From an uncultured Methylococcaceae bacterium (GTDB lineage Bacteria; Pseudomonadota; Gammaproteobacteria; Methylococcales; Methylomonadaceae): a DNA stretch of 32,000 nt. A model generated the notes under the pieces. The model did no database searches and was not told the origin of the DNA. It saw only the letters and a list, made by a program, of their open reading frames with translations. Location of the stretch: assembly GCA_903945605.1 (NCBI GenBank), contig CAJAWH010000093.1, forward strand, positions 7,186 to 39,185, read 5' to 3'. Positions within the stretch are counted from its first letter, which is position 1; each line of letters opens with the position of its first letter. The position numbers were made by a program, and so were the translations under genes. Below, one piece after another: positions 1 through 21,963 of this stretch.

Positions 1-1124
1 AGCGTTAGGTCGGTATCGACAAACGCTTCTCCAGGCCCCATGAATTGCAATTTTTTCGCCATAGACGGTATATCAAATAATTTGATTGATCGTGTCATGC
101 CTTGGCTATTTTTATATAAATAGATAACGCCTTTTTTTGCAACCTCATCCTCTAAATAATTTAATATCATAGGGCTATGTGTTGTAACTAGTATCTGATG
201 ATGAGCCTGTACTAGATAGTCAATCAAATATTCAATAACCTCGGGATTAATGCCATTTTCTATCTCATCAAATAACAGAAAGGCAGGATCACTTTCGAGT
301 TGTGAAATAATTGCCATTAGCCTTAACATGCCATCATTGATATGACGTGCTGTTGATGTAATTTTATGTTCACCAAATTGCTCAACTATATCTAACTCTT
401 TCCATCCTGAACGTAGTGAGCGTGTTTCAATTGATTTTAATTGACCATAGATATGATTTAGCATCTCACACAATTTTTCCTGACCATTCTTACCTGACTC
501 ATGGATAAAAGCTGACAGTCTTTCTCCACCCAACCCTAATTTTCCATCGGCAGATTTAGCCCTGTTACGCAACAACTCTGGTGTCAACAAGTCGAGTGAA
601 ATTATATTTAGAATAATCGACTTAGAATCCTTTAAAGCTTTATTTATTTGATCATCTCTCAGGGATGAAATAATTGAGCCTTAATAGTCCCATACAACTT
701 TATACGATTTTGGTAGTTCATTGTACTTAAAAAGACCAGTTAAAAATAAATAACCTTCTTCCACCCTAAGAAAGCACGTTCCGCGAATTGTAATTTCTTC
801 TTGTGTGCACCTCAATTTACTACGATTTAAACTTCCGCTCCAAATTATTTCACCCAAAGGGCCAGACTCAATAACAACTTTAAACTCAATATTGCTTTTC
901 CTTGTTAATTTAGAGCTAATATCATCCTTGGCCCAATGACGTACTTTAAGCCATTCGTCTAAGTTACCTCTCATTAGTTGTGACAAAAAATCTAAGGCGT
1001 GAAGTACTGTAGACTTACCGGAGCCATTAAGCCCAACCAAACAATTGAAAGCGGTAAATTCCAACTTAAAATCAACTAACGATTTAAAGTTATCAATCCA
1101 AATTGATTTAATTTTAGTCATCAT
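1..1124 (-). pseudogene. ABC/AAA_21-like ATPase gene, 3' end off-window, interrupted by in-frame TAA (681-683) and TAG (537-539)
   Basis: One minus-strand frame is open from 1124 to the window edge except for TAA at 681-683 and TAG at 537-539. The N-part (track ORF 681..1124) has Walker A GLNGSGKST. My translation of 1..536 gives ...HINDGMLRLMAIISQLESDPAFLLFDEIENGINPEVIEYLIDYLVQAHHQILVTTHSPMIL..., i.e. an ABC-signature-like motif, Walker B and H-loop. The ATG overlaps the pglX stop (TAATG, 1122-1126). Sampled 60-nt lines are 28-38% GC versus 48-63% in the pglX 5' part. Confidence 0.7.
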
Positions 1125-4100
1125 TAATCTCCCGTTCCACCGGTCACCGCCTTAACCTCAGCGAGCAAATCACCAAATTTGCCGTAATTGACTTTAACAC
1201 CATCGTCCAAATCGATTTTGATCCACCTATCGGCATAATGTTTAAGTTTGTCGTCGAACTGGCGGAGTTCGGTTTGTTTTTTCTCCAGGGCTTGGATATC
1301 TTTTTTGATGCGCGTAGCCTCGGCGCTGCTGGCGTCTTGCAATTGTTGGTTTAACTGATCGGCATAAGCGCTGTATTTGCCCAGTAAGGGCGTGACGTAT
1401 TCGGTACGCATTCTGGCGAGGGTGCTGTCGTTGTAGCGGTGCAGGTAAACCAGACATTCGAAGGCTTTTTGCTTGCCGGTGCTGAACAGCCAGTAGATCG
1501 GGCGTTTTTTATAGGTTTGCAGGTGGTCTTTGTAAAACTGGTTGGACAGGTAGCGGCGCACGGTGTCCAAGCTGTTTTCGCCTTTTTTGGGTTTAAAGCT
1601 GCTCAAGGTCAGGCTTTCGGCGACGAATTCCAGGTTTTGCTGCAAAGTGTCTTCGCCCCACACTGTCACCAAGAACTCGCGGAAGCGGTTAGTGGCGTCA
1701 TCTTTGAACCATTCCTGATCGGTCAGCGGCAAAATGCCGTCTTCGTCAGCGGGAAAGCTTGGGTAACGGGACGGATCGAAATCGACATTGCCGGCATTTG
1801 CGTAGATCAAGCCTGGTTCATCCAGACTGTAGCGTCCCATCATACAGCCGATGGCATAGGAAATCAGACGTTGGATGTCTTTTTCTTGGTCGGCGCGGGT
1901 TAGGGTGATTTGGTCTTCGGGGACTTCGGGCGTGAGTTCATCTTGTAGGCCGTAGGCTTCAATGAATAGTCGGTTGTTTTCTTCTTCGAGCTGTTTCATC
2001 TGCGCGTATGCGGCACGGTTTTGGGTTTGCCATTTGGAGTAGGCGGTTGCCAGGTTTTTTTCTTTTGTGGCGATGAGTGGATTGGTTGCAAAATCCCATG
2101 AGGTTTCGTAGTTGTCCCAGTCGGTTTTTGCAATTTCAATTGCTTTCTTAACAAATTCATCAACTTCAGCATCAATAAATGGCAGAGCTATAACATTACC
2201 AACTTGAAAATTTAAAGTTGGGTTTAATGTATTCATTAGTGTTGGAGCGATTGCAGAACATAAAAAACCTGTAACCTTCAAAATTTTTTGCTGTTCAGGA
2301 AATAAAGATGAACCTGCTACGTCAAAAATAAAACCTGCTGAATAATAACGACCCCCAAAATATGATGAGCTTATAAACGACCAACTTACACTGGATTTAA
2401 AATATGAATCTCTGCCATCGTGACGAAATCCTGTATTGCTTCCGTTTTTTGCCCCTTCCAACATATCAAAACCATCATTTTGGTAATTGACTACAAAATC
2501 GTAATTGCCATGCCATTTTCTAAAAGCACCTCCTTTGTTATAAGGGAACCACTTTAGTTTCGATTGCTCTGCATCTTTTCTTGTAGAAAAGCCAATACCA
2601 AGATTTTTTGTATTAACTTCATGCCATAAGCGAACAAATTTATTGTTGTTTCCCGATGACATACCATGCTTCCCAACTGCAACATCACCCAACGCCGGAC
2701 TATTTGCAAAAATATCCCGAACTTTATCACTCACCCAATAGGCAATCGGACTACCTGAAATTTTTTTGAAATCGTCTTGAACGGTGGCATCAAAACGGTT
2801 TTGATTTGCTCGTAAAACGGCGGCTTTTTGCTCTTCGTTACCATCAATCAAGCGAAAAAAAGCAGGTTTGTAGCCGTTCATCTTTTTCTGATGAAACACA
2901 AATGCAGTTGTTTGCACCACTTCCCCTGAAATTTCCGCAAAGGCTCGTGCACCTAAATGCGCCATAGTGCATATCGTTCTGTTTGCTAACAACTTCTCCC
3001 GCAAAGTTTCATAAGACGACAAAAACATCCAACTTTGCATATTAACTTGAGCGTTAAATCCCGATAGATTGCAAAATTCAAAACCACGTTCTATAAACAT
3101 CGCAAACAAATCCGACTTGCTATCGGGAAACTGCTTTTTGGCAAACTCTTTCAATGCGGTATTCATGCCTTTACCGCCCATATACGGCGGATTAGCCACC
3201 ACAGCATCGTATTGCTGCGCCAATAACCAAGCCTGCTGCACATACGGCAACAAGGTCGTTGCCGCAAACTTTTGCATGTTGTCGCCTTGCTCAATCAGCT
3301 CCTGTAACTGGCTGGTCAAATTCCGCAAAAACTCCGCCTGCTCATGCGGTACTTGAATCAATGAACCCAAGGTTTTCGCTTGTTCGAATAAGACCAAGAT
3401 AGCCCGCAGTTGCTTAAACTCGATGTCGTCTAACGTATTTGCCAGGTTGCTTTGTATCTCTTCGTCGATAAGAGTATTAGTTCTACCGCGTTTGTCGCCT
3501 TCGTTTAACCCCAACTTTTGCCATAAATCCAGCAGATCGAGATTTTGCGTGGATTGAATCGCCAACACGTTGAGTTTGATGTCGCGGGTAAAAATGCGGC
3601 GGTCGTCTTCGCGGGCTTTCATCATCAAGGCAAAACCGGACAGTTGCGCGGCGCGGTCGTCGATGTCCAGGCCGTAGAGATTCTTTTCCAGAATCAGTTT
3701 GGGAATGTCGCGGACACGGTAGCCGCGCTCAATGTAAATGGCTTTGAGGATGTCGTAGGTTTCGACCAGGATATGGCCGGAACCGCAGGCGGGATCGAGC
3801 ACTTTGAGGGTTTCGGGATCGATGCTGGGCGGGGTGATCGCGGCTAGTGCTTCGACCACCGACGGTTCCTGTTCGGCGGGTTCGATGTAGTAGTCCATCT
3901 GCGCCTTCAGGCCGGAATCGGGATAGGTCATCAGCCATTGGCGACCGACGGAGTTTTGCACCAGGTATTTGACGATCCAGTTGGGGGTGAATAACTGGGT
4001 GGCGGCGGGGATGTCTTCGCTTTTGACCACGTTGCCTATGACTTGGTCTTTCTTTTCGGAGATATAAAACTGGTACAGCCAGCCGATAATTTCGACGGGT

Positions 4101-4723
4101 TGCCAGTCGTGTTCGGGGATGCTGTCCACCAGACCGCGCAGGATCGAATCGGTGCGGGTCAGATTGTCGGGCAGCAGCAGTTCGGTTTCATCATCCAGGG
4201 CTTCGAACAAAAACGGCATGGCTTGATGCAGTTGATGACATTGGCCCAACAGTAAGGTGCGATAGAGGTCTTCGTCTTTATTGCCCGCCAGTTTCAGTTC
4301 GACTATGCGGTTGCGATCCAGGCCCAGATCGGCGGCAACATCTTGGGCGTGGGCTAGGATTTCGAATGTTCCGGCTTTTTCAGGATGCGATAACACCCGC
4401 AGGTTATGCTCCAAATAGCCATGCAATTCCATGAAGCGAATGGCGGACAAGCGGTTGAACCAGGTGTAAGCCATCTGTTCTACTAATGCTTCAAAGCCCA
4501 TCTGCTCGGCCCGCTGAACCAGTCTCTCACGGGCACGCGCTAAACTGGCATCAAAACTCAAGCCTTCGATCTGCATCACCGAGCCGGAAATGACGGGTGT
4601 GTTGATGGTGAGCTGGCCTTTGCTGGTTGCATGAATACCAAACTGGTTAAGCCGTTGGCGGACAGCTGCTATGAAGTCGCGGCGGGCTTGCGGGGCGTAT
4701 TTTTTGAGGTTGTTGGTGTTCAT
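1124..4723 (-). CDS. pglX: BREX adenine-specific DNA methyltransferase PglX
   Basis: 1199-aa ORF of typical PglX size. SAM-binding motif LDPACGSGHIL and catalytic NPPYMGG (encoded about 3165-3195). Sits in the brxA-brxB-brxC-...-pglX gene order. ATG at 4721-4723. Confidence 0.9.
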   Translation of the reverse strand: MNTNNLKKYAPQARRDFIAAVRQRLNQFGIHATSKGQLTINTPVISGSVMQIEGLSFDASLARARERLVQRAEQMGFEALVEQMAYTWFNRLSAIRFMELHGYLEHNLRVLSHPEKAGTFEILAHAQDVAADLGLDRNRIVELKLAGNKDEDLYRTLLLGQCHQLHQAMPFLFEALDDETELLLPDNLTRTDSILRGLVDSIPEHDWQPVEIIGWLYQFYISEKKDQVIGNVVKSEDIPAATQLFTPNWIVKYLVQNSVGRQWLMTYPDSGLKAQMDYYIEPAEQEPSVVEALAAITPPSIDPETLKVLDPACGSGHILVETYDILKAIYIERGYRVRDIPKLILEKNLYGLDIDDRAAQLSGFALMMKAREDDRRIFTRDIKLNVLAIQSTQNLDLLDLWQKLGLNEGDKRGRTNTLIDEEIQSNLANTLDDIEFKQLRAILVLFEQAKTLGSLIQVPHEQAEFLRNLTSQLQELIEQGDNMQKFAATTLLPYVQQAWLLAQQYDAVVANPPYMGGKGMNTALKEFAKKQFPDSKSDLFAMFIERGFEFCNLSGFNAQVNMQSWMFLSSYETLREKLLANRTICTMAHLGARAFAEISGEVVQTTAFVFHQKKMNGYKPAFFRLIDGNEEQKAAVLRANQNRFDATVQDDFKKISGSPIAYWVSDKVRDIFANSPALGDVAVGKHGMSSGNNNKFVRLWHEVNTKNLGIGFSTRKDAEQSKLKWFPYNKGGAFRKWHGNYDFVVNYQNDGFDMLEGAKNGSNTGFRHDGRDSYFKSSVSWSFISSSYFGGRYYSAGFIFDVAGSSLFPEQQKILKVTGFLCSAIAPTLMNTLNPTLNFQVGNVIALPFIDAEVDEFVKKAIEIAKTDWDNYETSWDFATNPLIATKEKNLATAYSKWQTQNRAAYAQMKQLEEENNRLFIEAYGLQDELTPEVPEDQITLTRADQEKDIQRLISYAIGCMMGRYSLDEPGLIYANAGNVDFDPSRYPSFPADEDGILPLTDQEWFKDDATNRFREFLVTVWGEDTLQQNLEFVAESLTLSSFKPKKGENSLDTVRRYLSNQFYKDHLQTYKKRPIYWLFSTGKQKAFECLVYLHRYNDSTLARMRTEYVTPLLGKYSAYADQLNQQLQDASSAEATRIKKDIQALEKKQTELRQFDDKLKHYADRWIKIDLDDGVKVNYGKFGDLLAEVKAVTGGTGD

Positions 4724-4753
4724 TCTGTATTGCTGCCGTTTATTTTTATTTGG

Positions 4754-7700
4754 TTAAGCCGCAATGGTGCGGATACTGCTGCCATTTTTCGAGCTAATCA
4801 CGTCCAGCCGTAAGGCCATTTGTTCTTTCAATTCCGAGACATGCGAAATAATGCCGATCATGCGGCCACTGGCTTGCAGGTCGATTAGGGTTCTGATGGC
4901 CAAGTCCAGCGATTCAGGATCGAGACTGCCAAAGCCTTCATCGATAAACAAGGCGTCGAGTTTAATGCCGCCAGCGTAAGATTGGACGACATCCGACAAT
5001 CCCAGCGCCAAGGACAAGGCGGCCATGAAGGATTCGCCGCCGGATAGTGTAGCAACAGGGCGGTTTTTGCCTGTGTAGCCATCTTCCACTTCCAGATCGA
5101 GACCGGATGCCTTATTGCCTTTGGTTCGATCTTCCTTGCGTACCAACTGGTAGCGACCATTGCTCATGATATGCAGCCGTTGTGAGGCTTGGATCAATAC
5201 ATCGTCCAATAGCACGCTGAGCACAAAGCGTTGCAGACTGATGCGATTGCCGGTTTGGCCGTTGGCGACATCGCTTAAGGTGCCGACAATCCGGTATTGG
5301 GCTTCCAACTCTGCGTTCTTTTCATGGGCTTTGGCAAGCTTGTTTTTTACGCCTTGCAACTGATTATGGCGTTCTTGCAGTTTGCGCCAAGCTGCATCAT
5401 AGGCATTGAAGGCGTTCGTTTTGTCGGTAAGCTCCAAATCGAGTTTTTCCAAATCGGGTATGGCTTGATCCGCCAATTCGGTTTGCAGTTGTTCAACTGC
5501 GCCTTTCAGGGTAGCCCGTTCAGTTTGATAGGTTTCGATTTGTTTTTTTAGGTCTTGTCGTTGCTCATCACCGAGTAACGCAAGCAGGAAAGCATCAAGG
5601 TCTTCGAAAGGACTGTTGGTTAGCCCATCGTTCCAAGCGGCTTCAGTTTGACTGAATGCCAGTTGCAAGGCATCACGTTGCTGGCCTAGGGTTTGTAAAC
5701 TGGATTGTGCGCTGGCGAGAGCGTTGGATTTCTCGTTAAAGGCGGTCTGTGCGTTGCTGACGGCATCGGTCAGCGTTTTGATTTTGGTAGCCACATCGCT
5801 GATAGCTTTGCTTAATATCTGAGCGTCGCGATACGCTTCCGGTACCAGTTCTTCCAATTGTCCAACACGTGCACGGGCGGTTAGCACTTGGTCGTTATCG
5901 GATTTTGCTTGGGCTTCCAATGCGGCAATGTTTTCAGCCAGTTTAGCGAGTTGCTGGTTAAATTCGGCATTGCTTTGGGTCAGTTGTCTTTGTTGGGATT
6001 GTTGCTGTAACAAGCCTTGGACTTCGGATTGTTTGGTCTGGTAAGTTTGTTCGACTGCATTTAACGGCTGCTGGGCGATGTCTGCCAGTTGCTCGACCAA
6101 TTGGTTAATTTCTTTGATGACACCAGCCGTTTCCAGATGGGCAGTATCGTACTTGTCCTTGGCTATGTCCAAGGTTTTACGCGCCTGATCTTCCTGCGCT
6201 CTGGCATTTTCCACTTGCTGCTTGGTGACTAATTTGGCATCGTTGACGGCATGAGCCGGTGCTGGATGTTCCTTGCTGCCGCACACAGGACAAGGCTCAT
6301 CAATTTTGAGCTCTTGAGCGAGCAATGCGGCTTGGCCAGTGTGCCAAGCCAATTCTGTTTGACGAGCTTTTCGCTGAGCCGCTTCAAAGTCGCTTTGTTT
6401 GCTTCGGAAAGTCGCCAGCAATTGAGCTTCGAGCTGCTCTAATTCGATTTGTTTAGCGCGTTTTTGTTCGAGCAGTTTGCGCTGTTCGAACTGAACACGA
6501 CAGGCTTCCAATTCAATTTGTTTGGGAGCCAATGCTTCCAAGGCCAGAGCAATTTGATCGATTTGGACGGTGTTAGATTTCAGCGTAGTGGATAAGGAAT
6601 CGCTGGTTGTTAACTGCTTATCCAGATTGTCCTGACTGGTTTTGAGCTGTTGTTCGGCAGTAGCCAAGATAGACTTAGCTTGAGTTAACTCGATGACACG
6701 ATCCTGATATTGGTTAAGTTCAACCTGCTGTATGTTTAATTGATCCACTTCGACAAAAGCGGCCTGGGCTGCCTGCAATCGTTGTTCGGCTGCGTTTTTA
6801 TCTTCAGTCGCCTGTTCCAGTGTTTTTTCGCTGCTGGCAATTTGGGAAACCAGCTTTTGTAGTGCTGACGATTTTTCCTGATAAGAACGGTAAACCGGTT
6901 GAATCTTCTGGGCGTTGAGGGCGTGGTCGAGCTGGCGTTGTTTAGCCTGGATTTGTGGTTGCAGAGCGGTTTTTTGATTCAGTTCTTCTTGCTTGCCAGT
7001 CAATGTGTCGAAACGTTGTTTGACTGCCAAGGCAGTTTCTTTGGCCTTGGTTACTCGTAATTGGGCTTCGTGAGCTTGTTCTTTGTCTTGAGCAGCCGCT
7101 GTCAATTCCGGTTCAAGATGAGTCAGCTCATTGTCAATGTCCGCCTCAGAATGAACTTCAACACTTTGCAAAATACCTTTGATCTGGTGTTGATGTTGCT
7201 CAACCGCTTGTTTAATACCGGTAGCCTGGGCTTTGAGTTGATCTTCGATACGCTTGTAGATTTGGGTTTGGAATAATTGGCTGAAGATTTTTTCCCTTTC
7301 ACTCGAACCCGCCATCAACAGTTCGCGAAACTTACCCTGTGGCAAGACCATGACCTGACGGAATTGTTCGACATCCAGACCGATGCGTTTACGGATTTCA
7401 TCGCTGGCATCGCCGACGCTTTTGGCGACAATCAATGAGCCGTCCTCAGAACCATCGAGCAGCCACAATTGTGCTTCAGCTTGTTGGGTCGTAGTGCCTT
7501 CTCCGCGACTTTTCGGGCGCTCTTGAGTCGGAATTCGCCGTACACGGTAGCCAGTTTGGCCTAATTGAAAATCCAGTATAACTTCCGTCAAAAGGGCTGG
7601 AGCGGCATAATCACAACGCATTTGTGCCGGTTCGCGTTCCGCGCCCGTAGTTTGTCCGTAAAGGGCAAAACAGATGGCATCCAGAATTGAGCTTTTACCC

Positions 7701-7816
7701 GCACCCGTCGCTCCGTTAATCAGGAACAGCGGATTGGATCCCAGTCGCGTGAAATCGATGGTTTCACGGCTGGCGAACGGGCCAAATGCTTGCAGGGTCA
7801 GATTCAATGGCTTCAT
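4754..7816 (-). CDS. sbcC: SbcC/Rad50-family SMC-like ATPase (nuclease subunit C)
   Basis: 1020 aa. N-terminal Walker A INGATGAGKSS, very long Q/E/A/L-rich coiled coil, central zinc hook CPVCGSKEHP (about 6266-6300), C-terminal signature LSGGESF, Walker B LFIDEGFGSLD, H-loop IISHV. Start overlaps the sbcD stop by 4 nt (7813-7816). Confidence 0.85.
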   Translation of the reverse strand: MKPLNLTLQAFGPFASRETIDFTRLGSNPLFLINGATGAGKSSILDAICFALYGQTTGAEREPAQMRCDYAAPALLTEVILDFQLGQTGYRVRRIPTQERPKSRGEGTTTQQAEAQLWLLDGSEDGSLIVAKSVGDASDEIRKRIGLDVEQFRQVMVLPQGKFRELLMAGSSEREKIFSQLFQTQIYKRIEDQLKAQATGIKQAVEQHQHQIKGILQSVEVHSEADIDNELTHLEPELTAAAQDKEQAHEAQLRVTKAKETALAVKQRFDTLTGKQEELNQKTALQPQIQAKQRQLDHALNAQKIQPVYRSYQEKSSALQKLVSQIASSEKTLEQATEDKNAAEQRLQAAQAAFVEVDQLNIQQVELNQYQDRVIELTQAKSILATAEQQLKTSQDNLDKQLTTSDSLSTTLKSNTVQIDQIALALEALAPKQIELEACRVQFEQRKLLEQKRAKQIELEQLEAQLLATFRSKQSDFEAAQRKARQTELAWHTGQAALLAQELKIDEPCPVCGSKEHPAPAHAVNDAKLVTKQQVENARAQEDQARKTLDIAKDKYDTAHLETAGVIKEINQLVEQLADIAQQPLNAVEQTYQTKQSEVQGLLQQQSQQRQLTQSNAEFNQQLAKLAENIAALEAQAKSDNDQVLTARARVGQLEELVPEAYRDAQILSKAISDVATKIKTLTDAVSNAQTAFNEKSNALASAQSSLQTLGQQRDALQLAFSQTEAAWNDGLTNSPFEDLDAFLLALLGDEQRQDLKKQIETYQTERATLKGAVEQLQTELADQAIPDLEKLDLELTDKTNAFNAYDAAWRKLQERHNQLQGVKNKLAKAHEKNAELEAQYRIVGTLSDVANGQTGNRISLQRFVLSVLLDDVLIQASQRLHIMSNGRYQLVRKEDRTKGNKASGLDLEVEDGYTGKNRPVATLSGGESFMAALSLALGLSDVVQSYAGGIKLDALFIDEGFGSLDPESLDLAIRTLIDLQASGRMIGIISHVSELKEQMALRLDVISSKNGSSIRTIAA

Positions 7817-8958
7817 GCCCGCTCCCCCTCAAGCTTATGAATTTCAGCAATGGTGGTTTTAATGGCTTGGTCTTGTTCCGGTGTTAAGTCGTCGCCATGC
7901 ACTTGTTTGAAGAAGTCGCGGAACATATCCAATTCACCGCGTTTTAACTTATCCCGATTGATGGGCTGATCCGACATATCCAACATGCCTGGTTTTTCGA
8001 TGTGCAAAACATTGGGATAAACTTGGCGCAATTTACCCATTGGATCGAGTATCGCGTGCTTGTCAGTTAAGCGAACCAGGAGGTAATCTTCGTTTTGGCG
8101 ATCTGTCTTGCCTTGTTCGAGCAGTGTATCCAATTCGCCTTCCAAGATGCGCATGTCTCGCAACGGATGCAGTGGCAAATGGGTGGCGGATTGCATACCG
8201 TTGGCGGCCATTTCGACCAAGGTGATGCCCTTGCGTTGGTTTTGCTCGGAGAAGCTGTATTTCAAGATCGAGCCTGAATAGCGGATGTGTTGCTCGCCTT
8301 TATGCTGCGGACTGTGCAGATGACCTAGTGCGACATAGTCAAACGCGGTAAACGCTTCGTAACTGATTCGGTCAGCACCACCAATGGACAGCGGACGTTC
8401 GGAATCCGATTCGTCACAACCATTGATAAAGCAATGGCTGATTAAGATAGTGGGCGAGTCATCCGATTTTGAGCTGATGATTTGCTCGACCAGATAGCGG
8501 TGCGCTTCGTCGTGGGTAGAAACGTCGACGCCAAAATGATTGCGGACCGATTCGGGATCATTGTAAGGAATGCCGTAGAAATTGACTTCGAGCAAGTTTC
8601 CACGAATTTTCACCGGTTGGTTAATTTGACCTAACTCGCCGATAATATGCAGGCCAGTCTGTCGTAATTGCCTGGAAGCGAAACGTAGCCGTTCGGCACT
8701 GTCGTGGTTGCCTGGAATGAGCAACACGGGGATGCCAAGTTCGGCACAAATTTTATTGAGCACATCGTCCAACAACTCTACCGCCGCCGCTGGTGGAACC
8801 GAGCGATCATAAACATCGCCCGCAATCACCACGGCATCGACGGCCTCACGTTCTATATGTTCGATTAACTGCTCCAGAACGTGGCGCTGGTCTTCCAATA
8901 ATGAAACATTATGGAATTGCCGCCCAATATGCCAATCCGAGGTGTGGATGAATTTCAT
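7813..8958 (-). CDS. sbcD: SbcD/Mre11-family metallophosphoesterase nuclease subunit
   Basis: Track ORF 7813..9063 trimmed to MKFIHTSDWHIG (ATG 8956-8958), with AAGGA 7 nt upstream overlapping the brxC TAA. All phosphoesterase motifs are present: DWH, GDVYD, GNHD, SHCF, GHLH. SbcD-type C-terminal region. 381 aa. Confidence 0.85.
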   Translation of the reverse strand: MKFIHTSDWHIGRQFHNVSLLEDQRHVLEQLIEHIEREAVDAVVIAGDVYDRSVPPAAAVELLDDVLNKICAELGIPVLLIPGNHDSAERLRFASRQLRQTGLHIIGELGQINQPVKIRGNLLEVNFYGIPYNDPESVRNHFGVDVSTHDEAHRYLVEQIISSKSDDSPTILISHCFINGCDESDSERPLSIGGADRISYEAFTAFDYVALGHLHSPQHKGEQHIRYSGSILKYSFSEQNQRKGITLVEMAANGMQSATHLPLHPLRDMRILEGELDTLLEQGKTDRQNEDYLLVRLTDKHAILDPMGKLRQVYPNVLHIEKPGMLDMSDQPINRDKLKRGELDMFRDFFKQVHGDDLTPEQDQAIKTTIAEIHKLEGERA

Positions 8959-8968
8959 GTTGTTGTCC

Positions 8969-11900
8969 TTAGCGTATTCTGACGCGATCACCGGCGTTAA
9001 CTGCTGTTGCCAAACGCTCACGAAGGGCATGCAAGTAACGGTCAATATCATTTTCGGTTTCAATGAATCCTTTTGGCGACACGGTGTTTAGAACTTCGAC
9101 TTGGTTGATGGTGATAGTCCGTTTAGGGGCGGGGGCGGGTTCGGCCACTTTGTTATCGCCAGGCGTTGGCGTAACTGGTTTTGGCGCTTGCTTTTGCCTA
9201 AGCGATTCGATATGGCGATTGATTAATTCGTAAGCGTCGTCTTCGTAAGCAGCCGCTTCAGATTGGTCACTGACGATTTGCGGAATGGATTCGTTGTGGC
9301 TGATCTCCTGTCTGCATAATTGCAACAGGCGCAACGCTTTGTTTTGGATGTCGTCAGGCGCGCCAGCTTGTTTCAAAGCGGATTGCACGCGCTCGATTCT
9401 TTGATCAAGTTCTGTTTGGGCTAACTGGCGTTTTTCAAGTACCAACTGTTTATTGATCTTCTGGATTTGCTCAATCAGCGGATTAATATGACGCAGTTGG
9501 TCATAGGGCGAAGCCAAGTTGTAGATACGGTCTAATTCGTCCAAGGCATTTTTAGCCTCCGGGCCTTTTTCCAGAGCCGGACGGTTGGCTTTGAACAGAT
9601 CGTTCAGGGCATTGATGAGTGCTTGCCAAGTTTGGAATTGGCTTTTGTAGAAGTCGTCCAGGTCTTCAAAATCTTCGGCAAAATCTTCCAAGGCGTTGCT
9701 TTGTTCCAGGCAGCGTTCTATCAGCGCAAAGCTGTTGGACTGTTGGAGCAGATCAGCCAGCAGTGTCAAGCCCTGTTGGATGTGTTGTTTACCTGGAAAA
9801 TGGCCGGTTTGGGCTTTGCTGCTGAAGGATTTAAGGTCGTCATACCATACCCCGATTTCATGTTTCAGTAGCTCTGCCAGTTCTTTTTCGCCTGAGCCGG
9901 TAAAGGTTTTATTGAACAGATTTTTAGCCAACGCCGCTGCATTTTTCAGTTGACGCTCATCGTGCCGCCTAACCTTTTGAACACGGATTTCGCCGTGTTT
10001 ACGCACACTGGTAAACGGATCATAGGCTTTTTTCAGCGGCAGCTCGCTGACACCTAAGGTAAAGCTGATTTTGCCTGCCAGACCCAGTCGGGCAACCAAT
10101 AACAGGATTTCGTTTACCGGCCATCCATAAGGGCGACGGCTGTGGCGATTGATAATGTCACGTAAATAAACCGCTTCATTGCGCTCGATTTTCAAAGTGA
10201 TGAACAACTCGATCTCACGGGTCGCCTGTGGATTGCATTCCATGGCTTCCATGTCGATACCCAGTTGCACAACATCATCAGAGACCATGACCGAGTGAAG
10301 CTCGCGCAACACTTCACCAGGGGTCAGGTGCAGCATGTTGAGCTTGGCAAAGCTGTTTTCAATGACATAACGGTAGGCTTCTTCCAACATTGCCGAGGGC
10401 GAAGCCGTTTTAGGTATCAGCTTGGCACCGATGGCAAACAGCTGGGCTTCGGCAAACAGTTGTTCCAGATCGTGGCGCAGGCGTTTTTCGCGCCCGATGT
10501 TTTCAAGCTGTTTCTCCCGCAACAAATGTTCTTGTTCGGGCCTCTGGCCGGAATTCTGTTTTAAGAATCGGTCGGTTTTCAGGTAACGGGCTAAGTCGCC
10601 ATCCAATCCCTTGTGGCCGAATAACATGGGATGGTCCGGCAATTTGATCAGTACGCAGCCGTCACCTTCCAAGGTGTGGTTCAAACAATATTGGTCACTC
10701 AGAAACGCGTCGTAATGGCTATCTAAAGGCGACGTGATTTTTACAACGAGGTCTTCCAATGTCGATCCGTCTCTGGGGTGGCCATTGCAGAAGCGGCTGA
10801 TATTGAAATCTTGTTTATTGACCGGATAACGGTAAGTGGTTTGCCGCGACAACAGGCCATCGAAGATCAGATTTGAAAGCTTGTTGGTCAACTCCGATGA
10901 CCCAACATCGGTGTGTAGGATTTCGTTTTCGATTTCCTTTTCTTCATTCGTCAGGAATACAAATTCGTCGCCGTTACGGGCAATCAACATTTGCCGTTCC
11001 AGACGGTTCAAGCTTTCTTCAATCTGTATACGCAGGGCGATTTTGTCGGTGTCGATTTGATCAATACACAAGGTAACAATATTATCAAGTGTGCTTTTGA
11101 GGACATCTACGTAACGGATCAGAAATAGGGTTTTCAGCAATTTGCCGTCGAACTCAGTTAAGACATTGAGTTCACACGCTTGGTCGATAGTGCGTTTGAC
11201 AGCAGGTTCCAGAAAGCTTTCGATCGGACTGTAAAAACAATAAAACGGAATCAGTACGCCAATGCCTTGATCCTTGACTTGCTTGGCGGCGGATTGGAAG
11301 GCATCTAATAATGAGCGCTCGCCCATAGCCAAATGCTTGCCAGTAGCGCCTTTGGTGCGAATCGATTCAAAGACTTTTTGCACCAGCGGATAGTGGTAGG
11401 GGATAAACGGATAGTTGTCGATAAATGATGGCGCATCGTTATAACTGTTGAGCGAGGCCGTCGTCGTGGTGTCGAATGCCAGCTGATTGCGCAGGATATC
11501 ACCTTTTTCGGCAAATACATTCGCCAACACTTCAGTAGCGGCTTCGGTTTTTTCCAATAGCCGTTTTTGAATCACTTCCGAGGTATTGGAGCTTGACAGT
11601 TGTAGGCGGGTATAAAACCGGCCCTGAATTTTGGAAAAGTCATCGCCACTGTTTTTGTTCAGCTGGCCGATAGCCGCTTCAATGTCCGCTTGAGACGTCA
11701 CGATAACCCAAGCCCGACCACCGCAAAAAGTGCCTAAGTCTTCGGTAATGGTCTGCAACTTCAACATCATTTGCGTGTTTTGACCGATAAACTGGCCTAC
11801 TTCATCGACGAGGAACAATAGGTTTCGGTCATCATGACTTTCTAAGTAGTCATTGACCCATTTACAGAAGTTGCGGATATCGAGCGGGAAGTTGTTTTCT

Positions 11901-12604
11901 AGCTGCTCGACCCATTGCTTGGTGGATTCAATGGTTTGTTTGCTGGCTGCCGCAAGGCTCTCTGCAAGTTCATCCCGGTAAAAATCGTAGGCATCACGCT
12001 GGGCTTCCCAGCTTGAACCAGTGAGTTCTGCGAATTTGTCTTTGAACGCTTGGTATTGGGTACGTTTGTCCAATTCCCGCTCAAGATGCGCGATATGCGG
12101 GAAGTCGGCGCAATAGCCGACGCGCTCATTGAACACTTTGAGGAAAACTTTCAGGATCGCGTTGTCGCCATCGTCCGTATTAGCACGCGAATCGATGTTA
12201 AACAAAATGACATCGGTGGGTTTTGATACAGCGCTGTGAATATCGCCGAACAGCATCGCATCATTGATTTTGTCTTTGAAAAAATCAATGGCAAGGAGGT
12301 TCTCACCTGCATTTTGCACAACACGGTTTTCGAGCAGGTATGACAGAATCTTGATGAAATGCGATTTGCCGGAACCGAAGAATCCAGAAACCCAGACACC
12401 GATTTTTCCGGCTACCGCAGGATTACGGTTTTTGATTGCTGGGACATACGTTTCGAAAAAATGGCGGAAATGGCGATCCAATTCGTTGGTGATGACGTAT
12501 TCGTCCAACTCAACAAACACACACTCATCATCAAGCTGTTCGGCTTTGACTACGCCGTTAATGTCTCGGTTGAGCTGCTTTGAAAAAATCTGTTCGATGT
12601 TCAC
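8969..12604 (-). CDS. brxC: BREX ATPase BrxC/PglY
   Basis: 1211 aa. P-loop GFFGSGKSHF near the N-terminus (about 12360-12390). Size and position after brxB are typical of BrxC. GVWVSGFFGSGKSH context. GTG start at 12602-12604. Confidence 0.9.
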   Translation of the reverse strand: MNIEQIFSKQLNRDINGVVKAEQLDDECVFVELDEYVITNELDRHFRHFFETYVPAIKNRNPAVAGKIGVWVSGFFGSGKSHFIKILSYLLENRVVQNAGENLLAIDFFKDKINDAMLFGDIHSAVSKPTDVILFNIDSRANTDDGDNAILKVFLKVFNERVGYCADFPHIAHLERELDKRTQYQAFKDKFAELTGSSWEAQRDAYDFYRDELAESLAAASKQTIESTKQWVEQLENNFPLDIRNFCKWVNDYLESHDDRNLLFLVDEVGQFIGQNTQMMLKLQTITEDLGTFCGGRAWVIVTSQADIEAAIGQLNKNSGDDFSKIQGRFYTRLQLSSSNTSEVIQKRLLEKTEAATEVLANVFAEKGDILRNQLAFDTTTTASLNSYNDAPSFIDNYPFIPYHYPLVQKVFESIRTKGATGKHLAMGERSLLDAFQSAAKQVKDQGIGVLIPFYCFYSPIESFLEPAVKRTIDQACELNVLTEFDGKLLKTLFLIRYVDVLKSTLDNIVTLCIDQIDTDKIALRIQIEESLNRLERQMLIARNGDEFVFLTNEEKEIENEILHTDVGSSELTNKLSNLIFDGLLSRQTTYRYPVNKQDFNISRFCNGHPRDGSTLEDLVVKITSPLDSHYDAFLSDQYCLNHTLEGDGCVLIKLPDHPMLFGHKGLDGDLARYLKTDRFLKQNSGQRPEQEHLLREKQLENIGREKRLRHDLEQLFAEAQLFAIGAKLIPKTASPSAMLEEAYRYVIENSFAKLNMLHLTPGEVLRELHSVMVSDDVVQLGIDMEAMECNPQATREIELFITLKIERNEAVYLRDIINRHSRRPYGWPVNEILLLVARLGLAGKISFTLGVSELPLKKAYDPFTSVRKHGEIRVQKVRRHDERQLKNAAALAKNLFNKTFTGSGEKELAELLKHEIGVWYDDLKSFSSKAQTGHFPGKQHIQQGLTLLADLLQQSNSFALIERCLEQSNALEDFAEDFEDLDDFYKSQFQTWQALINALNDLFKANRPALEKGPEAKNALDELDRIYNLASPYDQLRHINPLIEQIQKINKQLVLEKRQLAQTELDQRIERVQSALKQAGAPDDIQNKALRLLQLCRQEISHNESIPQIVSDQSEAAAYEDDAYELINRHIESLRQKQAPKPVTPTPGDNKVAEPAPAPKRTITINQVEVLNTVSPKGFIETENDIDRYLHALRERLATAVNAGDRVRIR

Positions 12605-12622: not shown

Positions 12623-13204
12623 TTATTTATTAAATGATTCGGGCACAAGTTTGAACGCACGATAATAATTTTTTGAATCGATCCGGCCAAACGGGTGTAG
12701 GTCTTGGCCACTATATTCGCCAGGGTAGAACAGCACCAACGGCGTTTTACCCATCACGTCTTGCAGCGCACTCAATAACTCATGACCTCGCACTAACGGC
12801 CAAGCATTGCCCAGACCTGTCAGTAAAACAAAATCCAAGGTTTCTGGCTGAATATCCGCCGCAATAAATTCAGCCACTTTTTTCTGGTTAAGTGGGCCGG
12901 CCAATGTCGATTTTATGGCGTTTACGCCGACCTGTTTTTCACGGGCAAAGGTACGTTCTAAAAGCCCCCTTGAATTGAGCATGTCGATCAGGGTTTGGAA
13001 CAGGTTTACATGCCTAAATTTGAAGCCACGTTTTTCCAACTTTTCGGTTAGATATTTAACATAGTCTCTGACGATGAGCTCATGATTTGCGGAATAGTCG
13101 AAAATCCAAAAGCCAATATCATTACCCAAGCCATCATTGTTTAAAAACTGCGGGTTATCGATACGCTCAAGGATGAGATCGAGTCGGTTTTGTAGCGATT
13201 TCAT
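12623..13204 (-). CDS. brxB: BREX protein BrxB (DUF1788-like)
   Basis: Track ORF 12623..13435 trimmed to MKSLQNRLDLILERI... The ATG at 13202-13204 overlaps the brxA TGA (ATGA); an alternative ATG lies at 13211-13213. ~193 aa, positioned between brxA and brxC. Family assignment by size, position and remembered similarity only. Confidence 0.75.
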   Translation of the reverse strand: MKSLQNRLDLILERIDNPQFLNNDGLGNDIGFWIFDYSANHELIVRDYVKYLTEKLEKRGFKFRHVNLFQTLIDMLNSRGLLERTFAREKQVGVNAIKSTLAGPLNQKKVAEFIAADIQPETLDFVLLTGLGNAWPLVRGHELLSALQDVMGKTPLVLFYPGEYSGQDLHPFGRIDSKNYYRAFKLVPESFNK

Positions 13205-13818
13205 AAGGTGCATTTCATGATCGGCTCGAGGTCTTCGCGATTTAATTGCTGCAACCATGATTTTGTCTCCGGTAGCAAGTAAACGGGCTGTAGGCGGCGG
13301 CTTTTGTTGTTGTCCAGATATCCCGCTTCGACCAAAGCCCGGATGACATTGGTGCCTGTTTTTTGTAGCGTAGCCTCTGACAGTTGGGACAAACCAGATA
13401 GTGTGCGAATGCGATCCAATAAAAAAATGCCCCACGCATCCGCAGCCAAATTGGGTTTATAAACACGTTTGGTTTCGGCAACGACGTGATTCATGAAATC
13501 GGCGACTACCGGTGTGTAAATCAGTAAAGCCAGCATCAAAAGCTGTGTATATAACGGATCGGCGGCATCGATAACAGCCTCCGAAAATGGCGTACCTAGG
13601 GGTAACAACCGCCGCTTTATCGTCCGTGCATATCGGATAGCGGTGTTCGGCGATTTTTTTCGTAGCACGTTATCTTGGGTAATGAGTTGTACCCAATCGA
13701 CTTCAGAGCAATCCAATAACAGGCTTTGGGCAACGGTTTTGCTTTCAGCAAGAAACAAACTCCCGCTGACTAAGTCGCGGATGTAGTGCTTGGCTTTATC
13801 AAGTTCTTGTTTACTCAA
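13201..13818 (-). CDS. brxA: BREX protein BrxA (DUF1819-like)
   Basis: 205 aa, first gene of the brxABC block. Start is TTG (13816-13818) overlapping the brxR TGA as TTGA. The next in-frame Met is about 95 codons in, so the TTG is the only sensible start. Confidence 0.7.
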   Translation of the reverse strand: MSKQELDKAKHYIRDLVSGSLFLAESKTVAQSLLLDCSEVDWVQLITQDNVLRKKSPNTAIRYARTIKRRLLPLGTPFSEAVIDAADPLYTQLLMLALLIYTPVVADFMNHVVAETKRVYKPNLAADAWGIFLLDRIRTLSGLSQLSEATLQKTGTNVIRALVEAGYLDNNKSRRLQPVYLLPETKSWLQQLNREDLEPIMKCTL

Positions 13819-14717
13819 AGCCCAGTTTCCTTATGGGGTAGGCAATAACCAGGTGCTAAGATAAGATTTTCTATAGACGTTAGTTCTTGGCGATTTGTGA
13901 GCCAGAGGTGGTATTCAGGGCCAACGAGCGCATGGTTTTCTGAGCAGTCCACATTCCACCGTCTTAACAAATAACCAGCAACAGCGGCACGTACCGAAAG
14001 CGTCAGTTTGCCATTTTCAATACCATATTCATGAGCTATGGTCTCAGGATAACCCAGTGAAGGATGGGGAACTAATTGAAGCTTTACGAATTGATTCCAT
14101 TGTTGATCGGCAGCCTTCGTTTCTGTATCTGAAACAGTCCGATTTTCAGCCAAACAAGGTTGTTCGATACGATTTATTACAAAATCGGAAAAGTGCTGTT
14201 TACGCCGGTCAAACGCCCTGACATGCCAACGCAAACCGTTATCGACCAGTGAGTGCGGGATGATTTCACGATGTGTTAAACCACTGGAAAGCGATCGATA
14301 AGCAATTGAGATTGCTTGCTTGCAGTAGATGGCGCGGGTAACGGACGCCAAAATATAACAGGCCGGAAAATGTAATTGAGTTGGCGCTTCGGCGGCATCG
14401 AAGGTACGGCTTGTAGATACAAAGTCATCACCATAGCCGTGGAGTAACGCTGCCAATGCTTGATGACTGGAATAGCTGAATAGTGGTGAAAAACTATCAC
14501 GCTGGATGTACGCTTTAGCTTTGGTGTCGTATTCCAGATTTTTTGGCGTTAATTCTTTGTAGAGTGTAATGTCCCTGGTTGCGGCGGCTTCTTTAATGCC
14601 AAAGCGTGCAACAAGGTCATTACGATTGACCGATCCAAGAAAAAACAAGCGGAAGTCTATATGCAACAGACGCTCCTTCTGGGTTTGACTTAAATTCTCA
14701 AGTAGCTGTTGTTGCAT
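13815..14717 (-). CDS. brxR: WYL-domain transcriptional regulator, BrxR-like
   Basis: 300 aa. N-terminus LSQTQKERLLHIDFRLFFLGSVNRNDLVARFGIKEAAATRDITLYKEL matches the winged-HTH start of BrxR/CapW-type regulators as I remember them. Lies immediately upstream of and coupled to brxA. Confidence 0.7.
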   Translation of the reverse strand: MQQQLLENLSQTQKERLLHIDFRLFFLGSVNRNDLVARFGIKEAAATRDITLYKELTPKNLEYDTKAKAYIQRDSFSPLFSYSSHQALAALLHGYGDDFVSTSRTFDAAEAPTQLHFPACYILASVTRAIYCKQAISIAYRSLSSGLTHREIIPHSLVDNGLRWHVRAFDRRKQHFSDFVINRIEQPCLAENRTVSDTETKAADQQWNQFVKLQLVPHPSLGYPETIAHEYGIENGKLTLSVRAAVAGYLLRRWNVDCSENHALVGPEYHLWLTNRQELTSIENLILAPGYCLPHKETGL

Positions 14718-14764: not shown

Positions 14765-14794
14765 ATTATATGACCACGATGATATTTATATCAA
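14765..14794 (-). promoter_or_regulatory. Candidate sigma70 promoter of the brxR-BREX operon with overlapping palindromic operator
   Basis: Minus strand: -35 TTGATA (14794-14789), 18-nt spacer, -10 TATAAT (14770-14765), about 47 nt upstream of the brxR ATG. A perfect palindrome TGATAT-nn-ATATCA (14780-14793) overlaps the -35. Confidence 0.4.
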
Positions 14795-15072: not shown

Positions 15073-16260
15073 TTAGAGAATTATTTCGTTATTTGACAAT
15101 CCCAATAAAATTTCCTTAAGCTTTTCCCAATACTCCACTGCCACAGATTTCATGATTGCGGAAAATATTTCATGCGCGAATTTTGTCTCAAACCCGAGCC
15201 ATTTTTCGCTCATCAAGATTCGCGTTCGAGAAGAATTTAGGTCTAAATCCATTGATCCGCAAATATCAATAACTAAAAGAATGGGCAATGGCCAGAAAAG
15301 ACGTACTTGGTTTTTCTGCATTGACCATGATTCAGGGAACGGGCTTGAAGGAACTTCAAAGCCATGCAAGGAAATCCGAGATTTAGAGTGTGGGTAGCCC
15401 TCAAATGTGGCTTGATCGTCATCAAAACTTTTTTCATCAGCTTAAGCATATCCTGAGATATGCCCTGAGTTATCAGGACTAGCTATTGTCGCTTTGTTAT
15501 CTCTGCTGAGTATCCGCATAGTGATTACAATCAAAATGATCCACAACCACAGGTTGATTTTATTGTTTTCGACCTCATAGTTCTGTTGAATTTCTTTTTT
15601 ATGCTCTCGTTTTATAGCCTAAGTTGTTGGTTTGATTTCCTCATGAATACCATCGGGCTTTAAGAAGCCCTGTCTATTTCCTTGGTCTTTACGAACCCAT
15701 CCTTGTTCGAGCATACATTTTTCAAGTTGCCCCTTAAAACGCGTTCTTCGGTCTTGTGTGGTTCGAAGGACTTGTTCAGGAATAATTTTACCGATATTTA
15801 TAATGACGTAATCCCGATTGCCTTTCCAAGTCAATGTAGGGTCGTCTAGACCTGAGAGGATTTTATTCGCTGTTTCCAAAGCTTTTGCTTGCGTATCCAT
15901 CCTTGGTGACATTTTATCAACCTGACGGTGTCCATTTTTCACAATAGCAGCGGTTTCTCGATCAAGATTGATTTCCCAGTGGTGGACATCAGCTCTGCTT
16001 GAACCATTGATCAGTGCTCCGTGGCGTTCCAGTTCAAAACATAACACAGGAGGTTTCCACTTTAAGTTTTCTGCTCGACAAACTTTCTCCGGGAAAGTCT
16101 TGTGCTGATCGCTGCCTTTTAGAGACTGCCAGCATTCTGCCAATAACATGAGAATGTCCGATTTAGGCTTATCAACTATCGCCGCTTTGCCATCAGGCAG
16201 GGCTATTAAATAATCGTGTAAGGCTCGAATTGTATTTTTTGAGTGTCCCATTGCTTCCAA
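15073..16260 (-). pseudogene. Decayed gene: unknown N-domain, TM helix, truncated vWA-like start; two in-frame stops
   Basis: Track ORFs 15619..16260 and 15073..15369 share one frame (both low coordinates are 1 mod 3). The 15370-15618 interval is open in that frame except for TAA at 15442-15444, and the first ORF ends with TAG at 15619-15621. The middle piece encodes a hydrophobic helix INLWLWIILIVITMRIL. The last piece has PILLVIDICGSM, resembling a vWA beta1/MIDAS DxSGSM start, but ends about 55 aa later. Confidence 0.45.
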
Positions 16261-16644
16261 TTGCCTCGACTCTGTTGCGGGGTTAATAGAAACTGCGCTA
16301 AAAATTTACACCAAAAATTCAAACGATGCATAATTTATGACAAGGATGCTGGTTTGTAGGTATTGCTACAGGGCAAAGACGTGAGCCGATACGGCAATCG
16401 CTTCAACAGAAACAACTTGGTGGTCATTAAAAAATGGGTGTTTGACTGGACGGCGCACTGGCTAAGGCCGGTGTGCTGTTTGGCCGCTGTGCCGGTGTTT
16501 TTTAGAGTTGGCATAAGCGGTGGCGGTGGGTGGTTCGCTTGAAATTGGCAGGTTGTTAGCGCAAGGGGATAGCAATTAGGCATCATACATAGTAGTAAAT
16601 GGCCTAATTGGATATGGCTAAAATTTGTTGTACCGAGAGTTGTA

Positions 16645-16748
16645 CCGAAACGCCATTTTTACGATTCACGCCAAAGAGCCAATTCATAACCCCTTGAAAA
16701 AGTTGGTCGGGACGACAGGATTTGAACCTGCTACCACTTGTCCCCCAG
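16645..16748. repeat. Left direct repeat (att site) containing a displaced 3' fragment of tRNA-Pro (16704-16748)
   Basis: Matches 22457-22560 at 100 of 104 positions by my alignment. The last 45 nt equal the tRNA-Pro 3' part from anticodon-loop position 32 to CCA, with one mismatch (ctgcTacc vs ctgcGacc). Confidence 0.85.
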
Positions 16749-16886
16749 TTAGGTGAAGCACAGTAAACCGGCCTTGCCACCACAGGCCAACCACAAAGCC
16801 ACCAACAAAAAAACTACAAAAAACCAAACAGTTGTAAAAATAATTTGTTCAACCAAAGCCAATAGAGTACCATTAAATTCAACCGG

Positions 16887-16911
16887 AAAGTGTACCCGCT
16901 AGTGTACCCGA
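16887..16911. promoter_or_regulatory. Candidate integrase arm-type binding site (tandem AGTGTACCCG x2), int-proximal copy
   Basis: The 25-nt aaagtgtacccgctagtgtacccga is identical to 22436-22460 at the other end of the element. In the excised circle the two copies would flank the att core. Confidence 0.5.
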
Positions 16912-16978
16912 TAAAATGCAGCTAAGTGCCTGATATTTTCAACCCGCAACCTATTGTCAGTTTGACAAGTTCACCCGT

Positions 16979-18289: not shown

Positions 18290-18356
18290 CAAGGTGCGAT
18301 AGAGTTCGATACGATAGCCCCGTACCAAGGACGCTAGCCATTCAAAGGAGATTATC

Positions 18357-18539
18357 ATGGCCACATTGCTGCGATTGCCGCAAGCATTGGAATTTTCAGG
18401 TTTGAAACGCACCACTTTTTTAACGATGGTCAAGGCGGGCCACCTGCCTGCACCTGTTCAAATATCCGCCAAATGCGTGGCGTGGCGGCGCGAGGAGCTG
18501 GAAGCATGGGCGGCCAACCTGCCCAAAAAACTACATTAA
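18357..18539 (+). CDS. alpA: AlpA-family HTH regulator/excisionase-like protein
   Basis: 60 aa. LLRLPQALEFSGLKRTTFLTMVKAGHLPAPVQISAKCVAWRREELEAW is the classic AlpA/HTH_17 pattern. AAGGAG lies 6 nt upstream of the ATG. Confidence 0.8.
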   Translation: MATLLRLPQALEFSGLKRTTFLTMVKAGHLPAPVQISAKCVAWRREELEAWAANLPKKLH

Positions 18540-18563
18540 CCGGCGGCTAACCGGAGACAACAA

Positions 18564-18645
18564 CCCCGTCATCAACACAATGGCGGGTGTCCCCCACAGT
18601 AATGCGGGGGTTTTGTGAAGCCCCGTCATCAGCACAATGGCGGGG
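18564..18645 (+). promoter_or_regulatory. Three consecutive GC-rich hairpins: two near-identical 24-25-nt repeats flanking a terminator-like hairpin
   Basis: R1 18564-18587 is ccccgtcatcaacacaatggcggg and R2 18621-18645 is ccccgtcatcagcacaatggcgggg. Each folds as an 8-9-bp stem (one G-U pair) with a 7-nt loop. Between them, ccccc(18591-95)/ggggg(18606-10) is followed by TTTT. Confidence 0.4.
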
Positions 18646-18706
18646 CAACCAACCCAAGCCATAGGATTTTGGCTTTTTAAGCAATAAGTTGAAAGGATTC
18701 AACATC

Positions 18707-20968: not shown

Positions 20969-20972
20969 CAAC

Positions 20973-21125: not shown

Positions 21126-21149
21126 TATAAATCATAAGGGAATTACATT

Positions 21150-21512: not shown

Positions 21513-21535
21513 CACCGCCAAGGTTCGGCGAAATT

Positions 21536-21931: not shown

Positions 21932-21963
21932 CATTGTGGTTTTGAGGCTGTAAAAATTTGCGT

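Follow-up and report, generated by a model that had tools for sequence, protein, structure and literature searches.

An SbcD-SbcC nuclease pair between brxC and pglX in a type 1 BREX operon of Methylomonadaceae

Bacteriophage exclusion (BREX) stops phage replication without an agreed DNA-destroying step, and recent work points to nicking by PglZ together with auxiliary nucleases. The DNA analysed here, a stretch of 32,000 nucleotides (nt) from contig CAJAWH010000093.1 of an uncultured Methylococcaceae bacterium (the window), raises a question of this kind: what is an SbcD-SbcC pair, by family an Mre11-type nuclease and a Rad50-type ABC ATPase, doing between brxC and pglX in the middle of a BREX operon? 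A sequence-only reading had proposed that the two genes (together sbcDC) form an intact nuclease module coupled to BREX. We describe a real, conserved and lineage-restricted BREX variant that carries a recruited housekeeping-type repair nuclease. By itself, this finding does not show that BREX has gained its missing nuclease.

The SbcD-SbcC pair and its operon

The sbcD gene (7813-8958, minus strand) encodes 381 amino acids (aa) with the Pfam domains Metallophos (70.5 bits, cut-off 21.5) and SbcD_C (61.7 bits, cut-off 24.4), and the protein scores 203 bits against the curated model TIGR00619, above its cut-off of 77.65. All five phosphoesterase motifs are present (DWH at residue 8, GDVYD at 47, GNHD at 83, SHCF at 174 and GHLH at 212). 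The product of sbcC (4754-7816, minus strand, 1020 aa) contains AAA_23 (81.1 bits) and SbcC_Walker_B (34.7 bits; both cut-offs 27), and its split ABC ATPase head is complete, with Walker A (GATGAGKSS at residue 35), the signature motif (LSGGE, 924), Walker B/D-loop (LFIDEGFG, 956) and H-loop (ISHV, 990). A CPVC zinc hook lies at residue 509 of 1020, and 61% of residues 201-850 are A, E, K, L, Q or R; this composition, together with a full-length alignment to chain 6S6V_C, predicts a long antiparallel coiled coil. The curated NCBIfam scores for SbcC stay below their cut-offs (331.3 bits against 478.5 for TIGR00618, 445.7 against 920 for NF041751), but because both models align end to end, SbcC is a divergent member by score with an unchanged architecture. 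Among solved structures, SbcD matches PDB 7DOG (E=4.8e-70) and E. coli 6S6V_A (E=9.8e-31), and SbcC matches 6S6V_C over residues 1-1006 (E=7.4e-43).

The pair thus shares with bacterial SbcCD (S. aureus SbcD, 7DOG; E. coli, 6S6V and 6S85) the overlapping sbcD-sbcC unit, the domains and catalytic motifs, the long coiled coil with its CxxC zinc hook, and alignment over the full length of the solved chains. It is nearer to the Staphylococcus type than to the E. coli type (309 bits for NF041753 against 162 for NF008206, both below the equivalog cut-offs), and it differs from bacterial SbcCD in lying inside a BREX operon rather than at a chromosomal repair locus. A coiled-coil ABC/SMC-type ATPase paired with a nuclease is also a feature of Lamassu, Wadjet and the OLD-type systems Gabija and PARIS, and PADLOC gave a partial LmuB match for SbcC (residues 19-422, E=1.3e-19) as well as weak N-terminal matches to JetC, DndD and PbeC. 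In contrast to Lamassu and Wadjet, however, the locus lacks LmuA, LmuC and Jet partners and the neighbour is a bona fide SbcD; the best full-length matches of SbcC are SbcC rather than LmuB, which sets the pair apart from the LmuB-LmuA family. The pair is genuine and complete and, judged by its motifs, looks catalytically active. The family assignments and every motif listed in the sequence-only reading were borne out.

The operon around the pair forms a single co-oriented row on the minus strand, running from position 14717 down to position 1. Its first gene is brxR (13815-14717), encoding a WYL-domain regulator (Pfam WYL, 40.4 bits) whose gene call on the source contig comprises WHD_BrxR, WYL and BrxR_CTD. 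It is followed on the same strand by brxA (13201-13818; Pfam BrxA 122.9 bits, PADLOC BrxA E=2.1e-67), brxB (12623-13258, a 211-aa gene call whose longest open reading frame (ORF) begins at 13435; Pfam BrxB 126.8 bits, PADLOC BrxB E=2.9e-68) and brxC (8969-12604, 1211 aa; a full-length PADLOC BrxC match of 1448.6 bits). After sbcDC come the BREX methyltransferase gene pglX (1124-4723, 1199 aa; PADLOC PglX 1620 bits; Pfam Eco57I, N6_Mtase and MmeI_Mtase) and a PDC-M25A-like ABC ATPase gene (1-1124; PADLOC PDC-M25A E=7.4e-48). Past the window edge, the 60.5-kb source contig (L161) continues with a 207-aa gene, Fic, pglZ (870 aa) and brxL (697 aa; BrxL_N, BrxL_ATPase and Lon_C). The order is therefore brxR-A-B-C-[sbcD-sbcC]-pglX-[ATPase, 207 aa, Fic]-pglZ-brxL. 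The six co-oriented core genes that mark type 1 BREX (brxA, brxB, brxC, pglX, pglZ and brxL) are all present together with brxR, so the operon is a complete type 1 BREX with two cargo-bearing gaps; it departs from the canonical arrangement in that brxC and pglX are not directly adjacent, 4.2 kb of sbcD-sbcC lying between them.

The brxC stop codon (TAA, 8969-8971) and the sbcD ATG (8958) are separated by 10 nt (8959-8968, ggacaacaac, minus strand), and the AAGGA ribosome-binding site of sbcD overlaps that stop. The sbcD and sbcC reading frames share 4 nt (ATGA, 7813-7816), and a 30-nt junction (4724-4753, minus strand) leads from the sbcC TAA (4754) to the pglX ATG (4723). These spacings agree exactly with those first read from the sequence, and the claim that the pair is operon-tight within BREX holds on the complete operon of the source contig. 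A consensus scan of the minus strand at the brxC-sbcD and sbcC-pglX junctions found no terminator-like sites. The candidate operon promoter is a sigma-70-like consensus match upstream of brxR (14765-14794, minus strand), the best in the region with 11 of 12 hexamer positions, where the number of such sites is not above chance. Most likely, this promoter near brxR drives sbcDC together with BREX, and translation of the pair starts at its own ribosome-binding site. The G+C content (GC) of sbcD and sbcC is 0.49-0.50, against 0.44-0.48 for the BREX genes, 0.45-0.53 for core genes (pheST, thrS) and 0.34 for the clearly foreign ATPase after pglX, which upholds the initial view that the pair resembles the BREX genes in composition and differs from the A+T-rich ATPase.

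Since sbcDC is placed directly between the genes for the ATPase BrxC and for the specificity subunit PglX, with translational coupling likely, it could be read as an effector built into BREX. BrxC, PglX or PglZ would recruit SbcCD to unmethylated phage DNA, and SbcCD would process PglZ-made nicks or stalled forks until the DNA is degraded, turning this BREX variant into a degradative restriction system. PglZ has been reported to be a metal-dependent nuclease (PMC12205998), and auxiliary effectors have been proposed to act on PglZ nicks in a survey of accessory nucleases (PMC12839542). We nevertheless judge such an integrated effector improbable, since the pair shows neither a visible sequence change specific to BREX nor an added domain for interaction, and BrxC, PglX and PglZ are full-length proteins of the ordinary type 1 kind.

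Recurrence and origin of the embedded pair

The brxC-sbcD-sbcC-pglX arrangement was seen in eight other loci. They are those of Methylomonas rapida (L001, CP113517.1), two Methylobacter metagenome-assembled genomes (MAGs; L006 and L007), M. psychrophilus (L008), a gammaproteobacterial MAG whose BrxC is 64.5% identical (L012), a metagenome contig with BrxC at 62% and SbcD at 56% identity (L125), a further metagenome contig in which a PIN_12 gene lies between brxC and sbcD, so that PIN_12 and sbcD share the slot (L086), and a decaying locus with brxC in fragments and sbcC truncated (L158). The brxC-sbcD junction is homologous and 9-10 nt long in L001, L006, L007 and L008, and the spacer of L125 is similar (9 nt, ggatactaa). 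The sbcC-pglX junction is homologous too, with 31-33 nt in L006, L007 and L008 and 30 nt of near-identical sequence in L001. Both sbcD (dN/dS 0.06-0.13) and sbcC (0.10-0.18) are under purifying selection comparable with that on brxC (0.04-0.05) and pglX (0.11-0.22).

The window and the M. rapida locus differ at ~15-25% of nucleotides, evenly from brxR to pglX. The two Methylobacter loci are mosaic, and a simple co-divergence of sbcDC with BREX was rejected for these two loci. Their breakpoint lies in the middle of brxC rather than at the junction, and the 3' half of brxC moves with sbcDC as a single block of 93-100% identity. Because the junctions are homologous, dN/dS is low, divergence is even and the brxC 3' half travels with sbcDC, the association of BREX with the pair is old and maintained. 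The suggestion that the pair is no obvious recent insertion is thereby upheld, given the same gene order and homologous junctions in eight other loci and the purifying selection. Inheritance of the brxC 3' half and sbcDC as one block is also what an effector integrated into BREX would lead one to expect.

Two observations concern pglX in these relatives. Between L006 and L007 (~15800-17300), central pglX, the presumed target-recognition region, falls to 39-55% nucleotide identity, which is consistent with specificity-domain swapping in PglX; in the same pair of loci sbcDC is 93-100% and the downstream sequence 94-99% identical. In M. rapida (L001, 14236-19214), sbcD and sbcC are intact although an ISL3 transposase splits pglX, and BREX is therefore probably inactive there.

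The closest SbcD proteins are from Methylomonas (90%, M. rapida) and then Methylobacter (78-79%). A scan of viral contigs with SbcD found no relatives. None of 5,426 E. coli genomes matched the segment in megablast; the host is not enteric, and its protein matches assign it to Methylomonas. In Methylotuvimicrobium (L003) and Halopseudomonas (L005), relatives with SbcD identity of 70-73% have ordinary surroundings on the chromosome. Neighbour-joining (NJ) trees of 71-78 sequences broadly track taxonomy, from Methylococcales to Cellvibrionales and Alteromonadales and then Vibrio, and the BREX-embedded sbcDC is nested inside the Methylococcales group, interleaved with chromosomal SbcCD. One subclade (100% bootstrap) joins the window and L001 with the non-BREX loci L160 and L009, and another (95.5%) joins L006-L008 with the non-BREX locus L159. 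A separate clade of BREX-embedded copies was considered and rejected, as L009, L160 and L159 fall inside it when more taxa are included. In an NJ tree of SbcD only, L012 and L125 branch away from the main clade at low support (54% and 52-58%), and either might represent a further capture; the L125 junction spacer is like the main one. By these trees, the embedded sbcDC is drawn from the SbcCD pool of the host order, Methylococcales. Of the two expectations set out in the sequence-only reading, that other BREX loci would carry such a pair and that embedded copies would cluster apart from housekeeping SbcCD, the first stands and the second fails.

This placement bears on a plainer explanation, in which sbcDC landed in the operon by chance and is kept for ordinary SbcCD genome maintenance in hosts without another copy. 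The pair would then serve in the removal of palindromes and hairpins and in end processing, with no role in phage defence. The nesting of the pair among the chromosomal SbcCD of the order and its unchanged architecture speak for such a passenger, as does its intact state after BREX loss in the core-like chromosomal contexts of L160 and L009. Among the best 80 loci of a scan of the GTDB genome collection, moreover, the only Methylomonas and Methylobacter genomes named are those that carry BREX, which hints that these genomes have no second copy of the family. We regard a passenger as possible, if on balance unlikely. Tight, co-oriented junctions conserved over ~20% nucleotide divergence do not favour it, and other relatives of the pair sit in unrelated defence islands.

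The non-BREX relatives show both kinds of surroundings. In L160, a Methylovulum MAG, the pair has a core-like context between RND efflux genes and a photolyase gene, near def-fmt-rsmB, and in L009 it is flanked by a giant adhesin gene and groEL. L159 (1-21146) is a DISARM-like island in which sbcDC follows genes for SNF2, a 2138-aa DEAD/MZB(DUF1998) helicase and a UvrD helicase. In L004 (Dasania marina, 1-21146), GmrSD, a PglZ-like protein and a NERD-UvrD helicase are encoded on one side of the pair and PLD and SNF2 on the other. The position of L159 and L004 in other defence islands supports a link of the pair to defence.

Three of these relatives may also retain traces of BREX. Compared in register from the sbcD ATG, the sequence upstream of sbcD in L009, L160 and L159 matches the end of brxC with identities of 0.565, 0.565 and 0.50, against a background of 0.376 (mean; sd 0.034, maximum 0.457) in 78 other non-BREX loci; position-free local alignment of the same three loci was not significant (z=0.5-1.9). 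The remnants translate as AITA[G/S]D and HAGDQAR, to be compared with the BrxC C-terminus ...AGDRVRIR*, which is native to BrxC because it is also conserved in BREX loci without sbcDC. The evidence for decayed last codons of brxC directly upstream of sbcD in the three relatives is good but not conclusive, and such remnants would mean that the sbcDC pair outlives BREX. The simplest reading is a single capture of a local sbcDC into BREX, followed by BREX loss or by relocation of sbcDC, with the pair surviving. The proposal of a BREX-coupled module thus stands as far as the conserved position in the operon goes, but not for L009 and L160, where the pair is intact after BREX loss; this argues for an autonomous module over an obligate BREX subunit, and counts against the integrated effector as does persistence in L159.

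Cargo slots and the remainder of the window

The gap between brxC and pglX was surveyed in 72 BrxC-related loci from a metagenome scan with a BrxC alignment. It has the canonical length (~50-180 nt) in ~24 of the 72 and holds 0.9-5 kb of extra genes in ~21, and the cargo that could be identified is defence-related. A GmrSD-like enzyme (PADLOC HEC-05, E=6.6e-234) occurs in the group with 70% BrxC identity; elsewhere the slot holds Gabija GajA (6e-194) with GajB (8e-156), or PsyrT (9e-267) with PsyrA (6e-113) alongside a PDC-M72B-like gene, and further cargo consists of PDC-M25A with PDC-M25B, AAA_21 with RloB, and PIN_12. The cargo ATG follows the brxC stop by 3-16 nt in most loci examined, so the tight spacing of sbcD is a general property of the slot. 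In this BREX lineage, accessory defence modules have repeatedly landed between brxC and pglX. That the slot is otherwise filled by recognised defence systems is a further point against a mere passenger. The presence of self-contained systems that work without BREX (Gabija, PsyrTA) equally weakens the case for an integrated effector.

The same survey bears on the idea that SbcCD protects the host, repairing or tolerating collateral damage to host DNA from BREX (for example PglZ nicking) or from neighbouring cargo and so making the island less costly to carry in terms of autoimmunity. In favour of this, SbcCD belongs to a family of repair enzymes, the pair goes with the island and has no fixed place on the chromosome, and unbalanced BREX components can be toxic (StySA genetics, PMC9009780). 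Most related BREX loci, however, do without sbcDC, and persistence of the pair after BREX loss is not what self-protection predicts; we consider both the repair role and the lowered autoimmune cost very unlikely.

The gap between pglX and pglZ is occupied in the window by the PDC-M25A-like ATPase gene, which has one in-frame stop near 681 (a fragment at 681-1124, then 1-590, cut by the window edge). By tblastn, this ATPase has no match in the one that M. rapida carries at the corresponding place, and it is only ~36-40% identical to that of M. psychrophilus. Since the ATPase differs between relatives, this gap is a second variable cargo slot. Another brxC-pglX cargo, in L154 (13635-17795), consists of genes for GMT-wHTH, DUF5131, a 192-aa ORF and a histidine-kinase-like ATPase with a DUF4325/STAS-like domain; this set may be an undescribed defence system.

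Outside the operon, the window contains thrS-infC-rplT-pheS-pheT and tRNA-Pro. Next to the latter lies an element of ~5.8 kb (16749-22456). The direct repeats on either side of it (16645-16748 and 22457-22560) are 104 nt long and 96% identical, and they contain the 3' part of tRNA-Pro. Between its genes for a tyrosine integrase (16979-18289) and a D5/NrS-1-type primase (18689-20968), the element carries an AlpA-like gene. The integrase, AlpA and D5-primase genes were considered as part of the BREX island and rejected as such, as they belong to a separate repeat-bounded element; by its genes and repeats, this is a small P4-like or satellite-like integrative element at tRNA-Pro, distinct from the BREX locus. 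Just upstream of the primase gene (18564-18644) are two 24-nt copies, 57 nt apart, of CCCCGTCATCA[A/G]CACAATGGCGGG, which could serve as iterons or operator sites. A 213-aa ORF (15619-16260, minus strand) that lies between brxR and the tRNA-Pro repeat has no Pfam, NCBIfam or PADLOC match.

Proposed role and significance

Accessory nucleases in BREX operons are known. They are the subject of the survey already cited (PMC12839542), BrxU/GmrSD has been described on pEFER (PMC8565348), and PARIS lies inside the Salmonella StySA BREX (PMC9009780). The SbcCD pair resembles these embedded nucleases in its place inside the core locus, with brxC upstream and pglX downstream on the same strand, and in that sister loci of its lineage hold a GmrSD-like enzyme, Gabija, PsyrTA and PDC-M25 in the same slot. 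Its calcineurin-type Mre11 fold and Rad50 ATPase place it outside the families named in the survey (HNH, HKD, PD-(D/E)XK, TOPRIM/OLD, HEPN, PIN and Schlafen), and unlike those nucleases it is a recruited housekeeping-type repair complex and not a dedicated conflict system. SbcC, SbcD, Mre11 and Metallophos are not mentioned in the available text and supplements of PMC12839542, and a full-text literature search, whose incomplete coverage makes this absence of evidence only, returned no paper linking SbcCD with BREX loci. The initial view that the pair is not part of any defined BREX subtype accords with these sources, as far as they were available; the embedding of nucleases in BREX is already published, and SbcCD as the embedded cargo appears to be new.

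Our favoured explanation, to which we give an even chance, is that SbcCD is an autonomous accessory nuclease, expressed with BREX and adding a degradative layer to it. We prefer it because of the company in the slot, because the coupling is conserved and because the pair survives without BREX. Captured from Methylococcales SbcCD, sbcDC would have landed in the brxC-pglX slot of a type 1 BREX, where it would be transcribed with BREX from the brxR-proximal promoter, sbcD being translated from the ribosome-binding site that overlaps the brxC stop. From the biochemistry of its family, SbcCD would bind DNA ends, hairpins and protein-blocked ends and degrade them, providing a nuclease layer against phage genomes or replication intermediates beside the methylation-guided replication block of BREX. 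An anti-phage role is thus suggested by family biochemistry and by the company in the slot. Lambda Gam inhibits SbcCD, and phages need protection from SbcCD. The TelN protein of N15 protects hairpin telomeres against Mre11-Rad50/SbcCD (PMC12624138).

Several points weigh against this explanation. The embedded proteins have no extra domains, and their lengths (381 and 1020 aa) match those of most chromosomal relatives, L009 differing slightly; they nest among the chromosomal SbcCD of Methylococcales without visible specialisation. The pair stays intact in loci that have lost BREX (L009, L160) and in one where BREX is broken (L001, with its ISL3-split pglX), and because it persists without a working BREX, a plain repair role fits equally well. 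The distribution seen is narrow, covering one BREX sublineage and mostly Methylomonadaceae. PADLOC v2 has no dedicated model that matches the pair, giving weak partial matches to LmuB, DndD and PbeC only. The predicted co-transcription is read only from spacing and the absence of consensus terminators, and the link of sbcDC to phage resistance is a prediction. The lack of visible specialisation, taken with persistence without BREX, also weighs against any obligate coupling of the pair to BREX. A hand-off, in which BREX would mark or nick unmethylated phage DNA through PglX, BrxC and PglZ and pass it to SbcCD for degradation, accordingly seems improbable to us. If true, it would make this locus a natural degradative BREX with the long-missing executioner step and would mean that domestication can turn a core repair complex into an immune effector.

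The conserved BREX sublineage, with its unmodified Mre11-Rad50-type nuclease, offers a natural and clonable test of whether a general repair nuclease can serve as an auxiliary or executioner of BREX. It also raises the question whether phage inhibitors of SbcCD (Gam-like, TelN-like) double as anti-BREX factors, and the brxC-pglX cargo slot can be mined for new defence genes. The probable brxC remnants beside sbcDC in non-BREX relatives suggest, finally, that a housekeeping-type pair can traverse a defence operon and return to ordinary chromosomal contexts.

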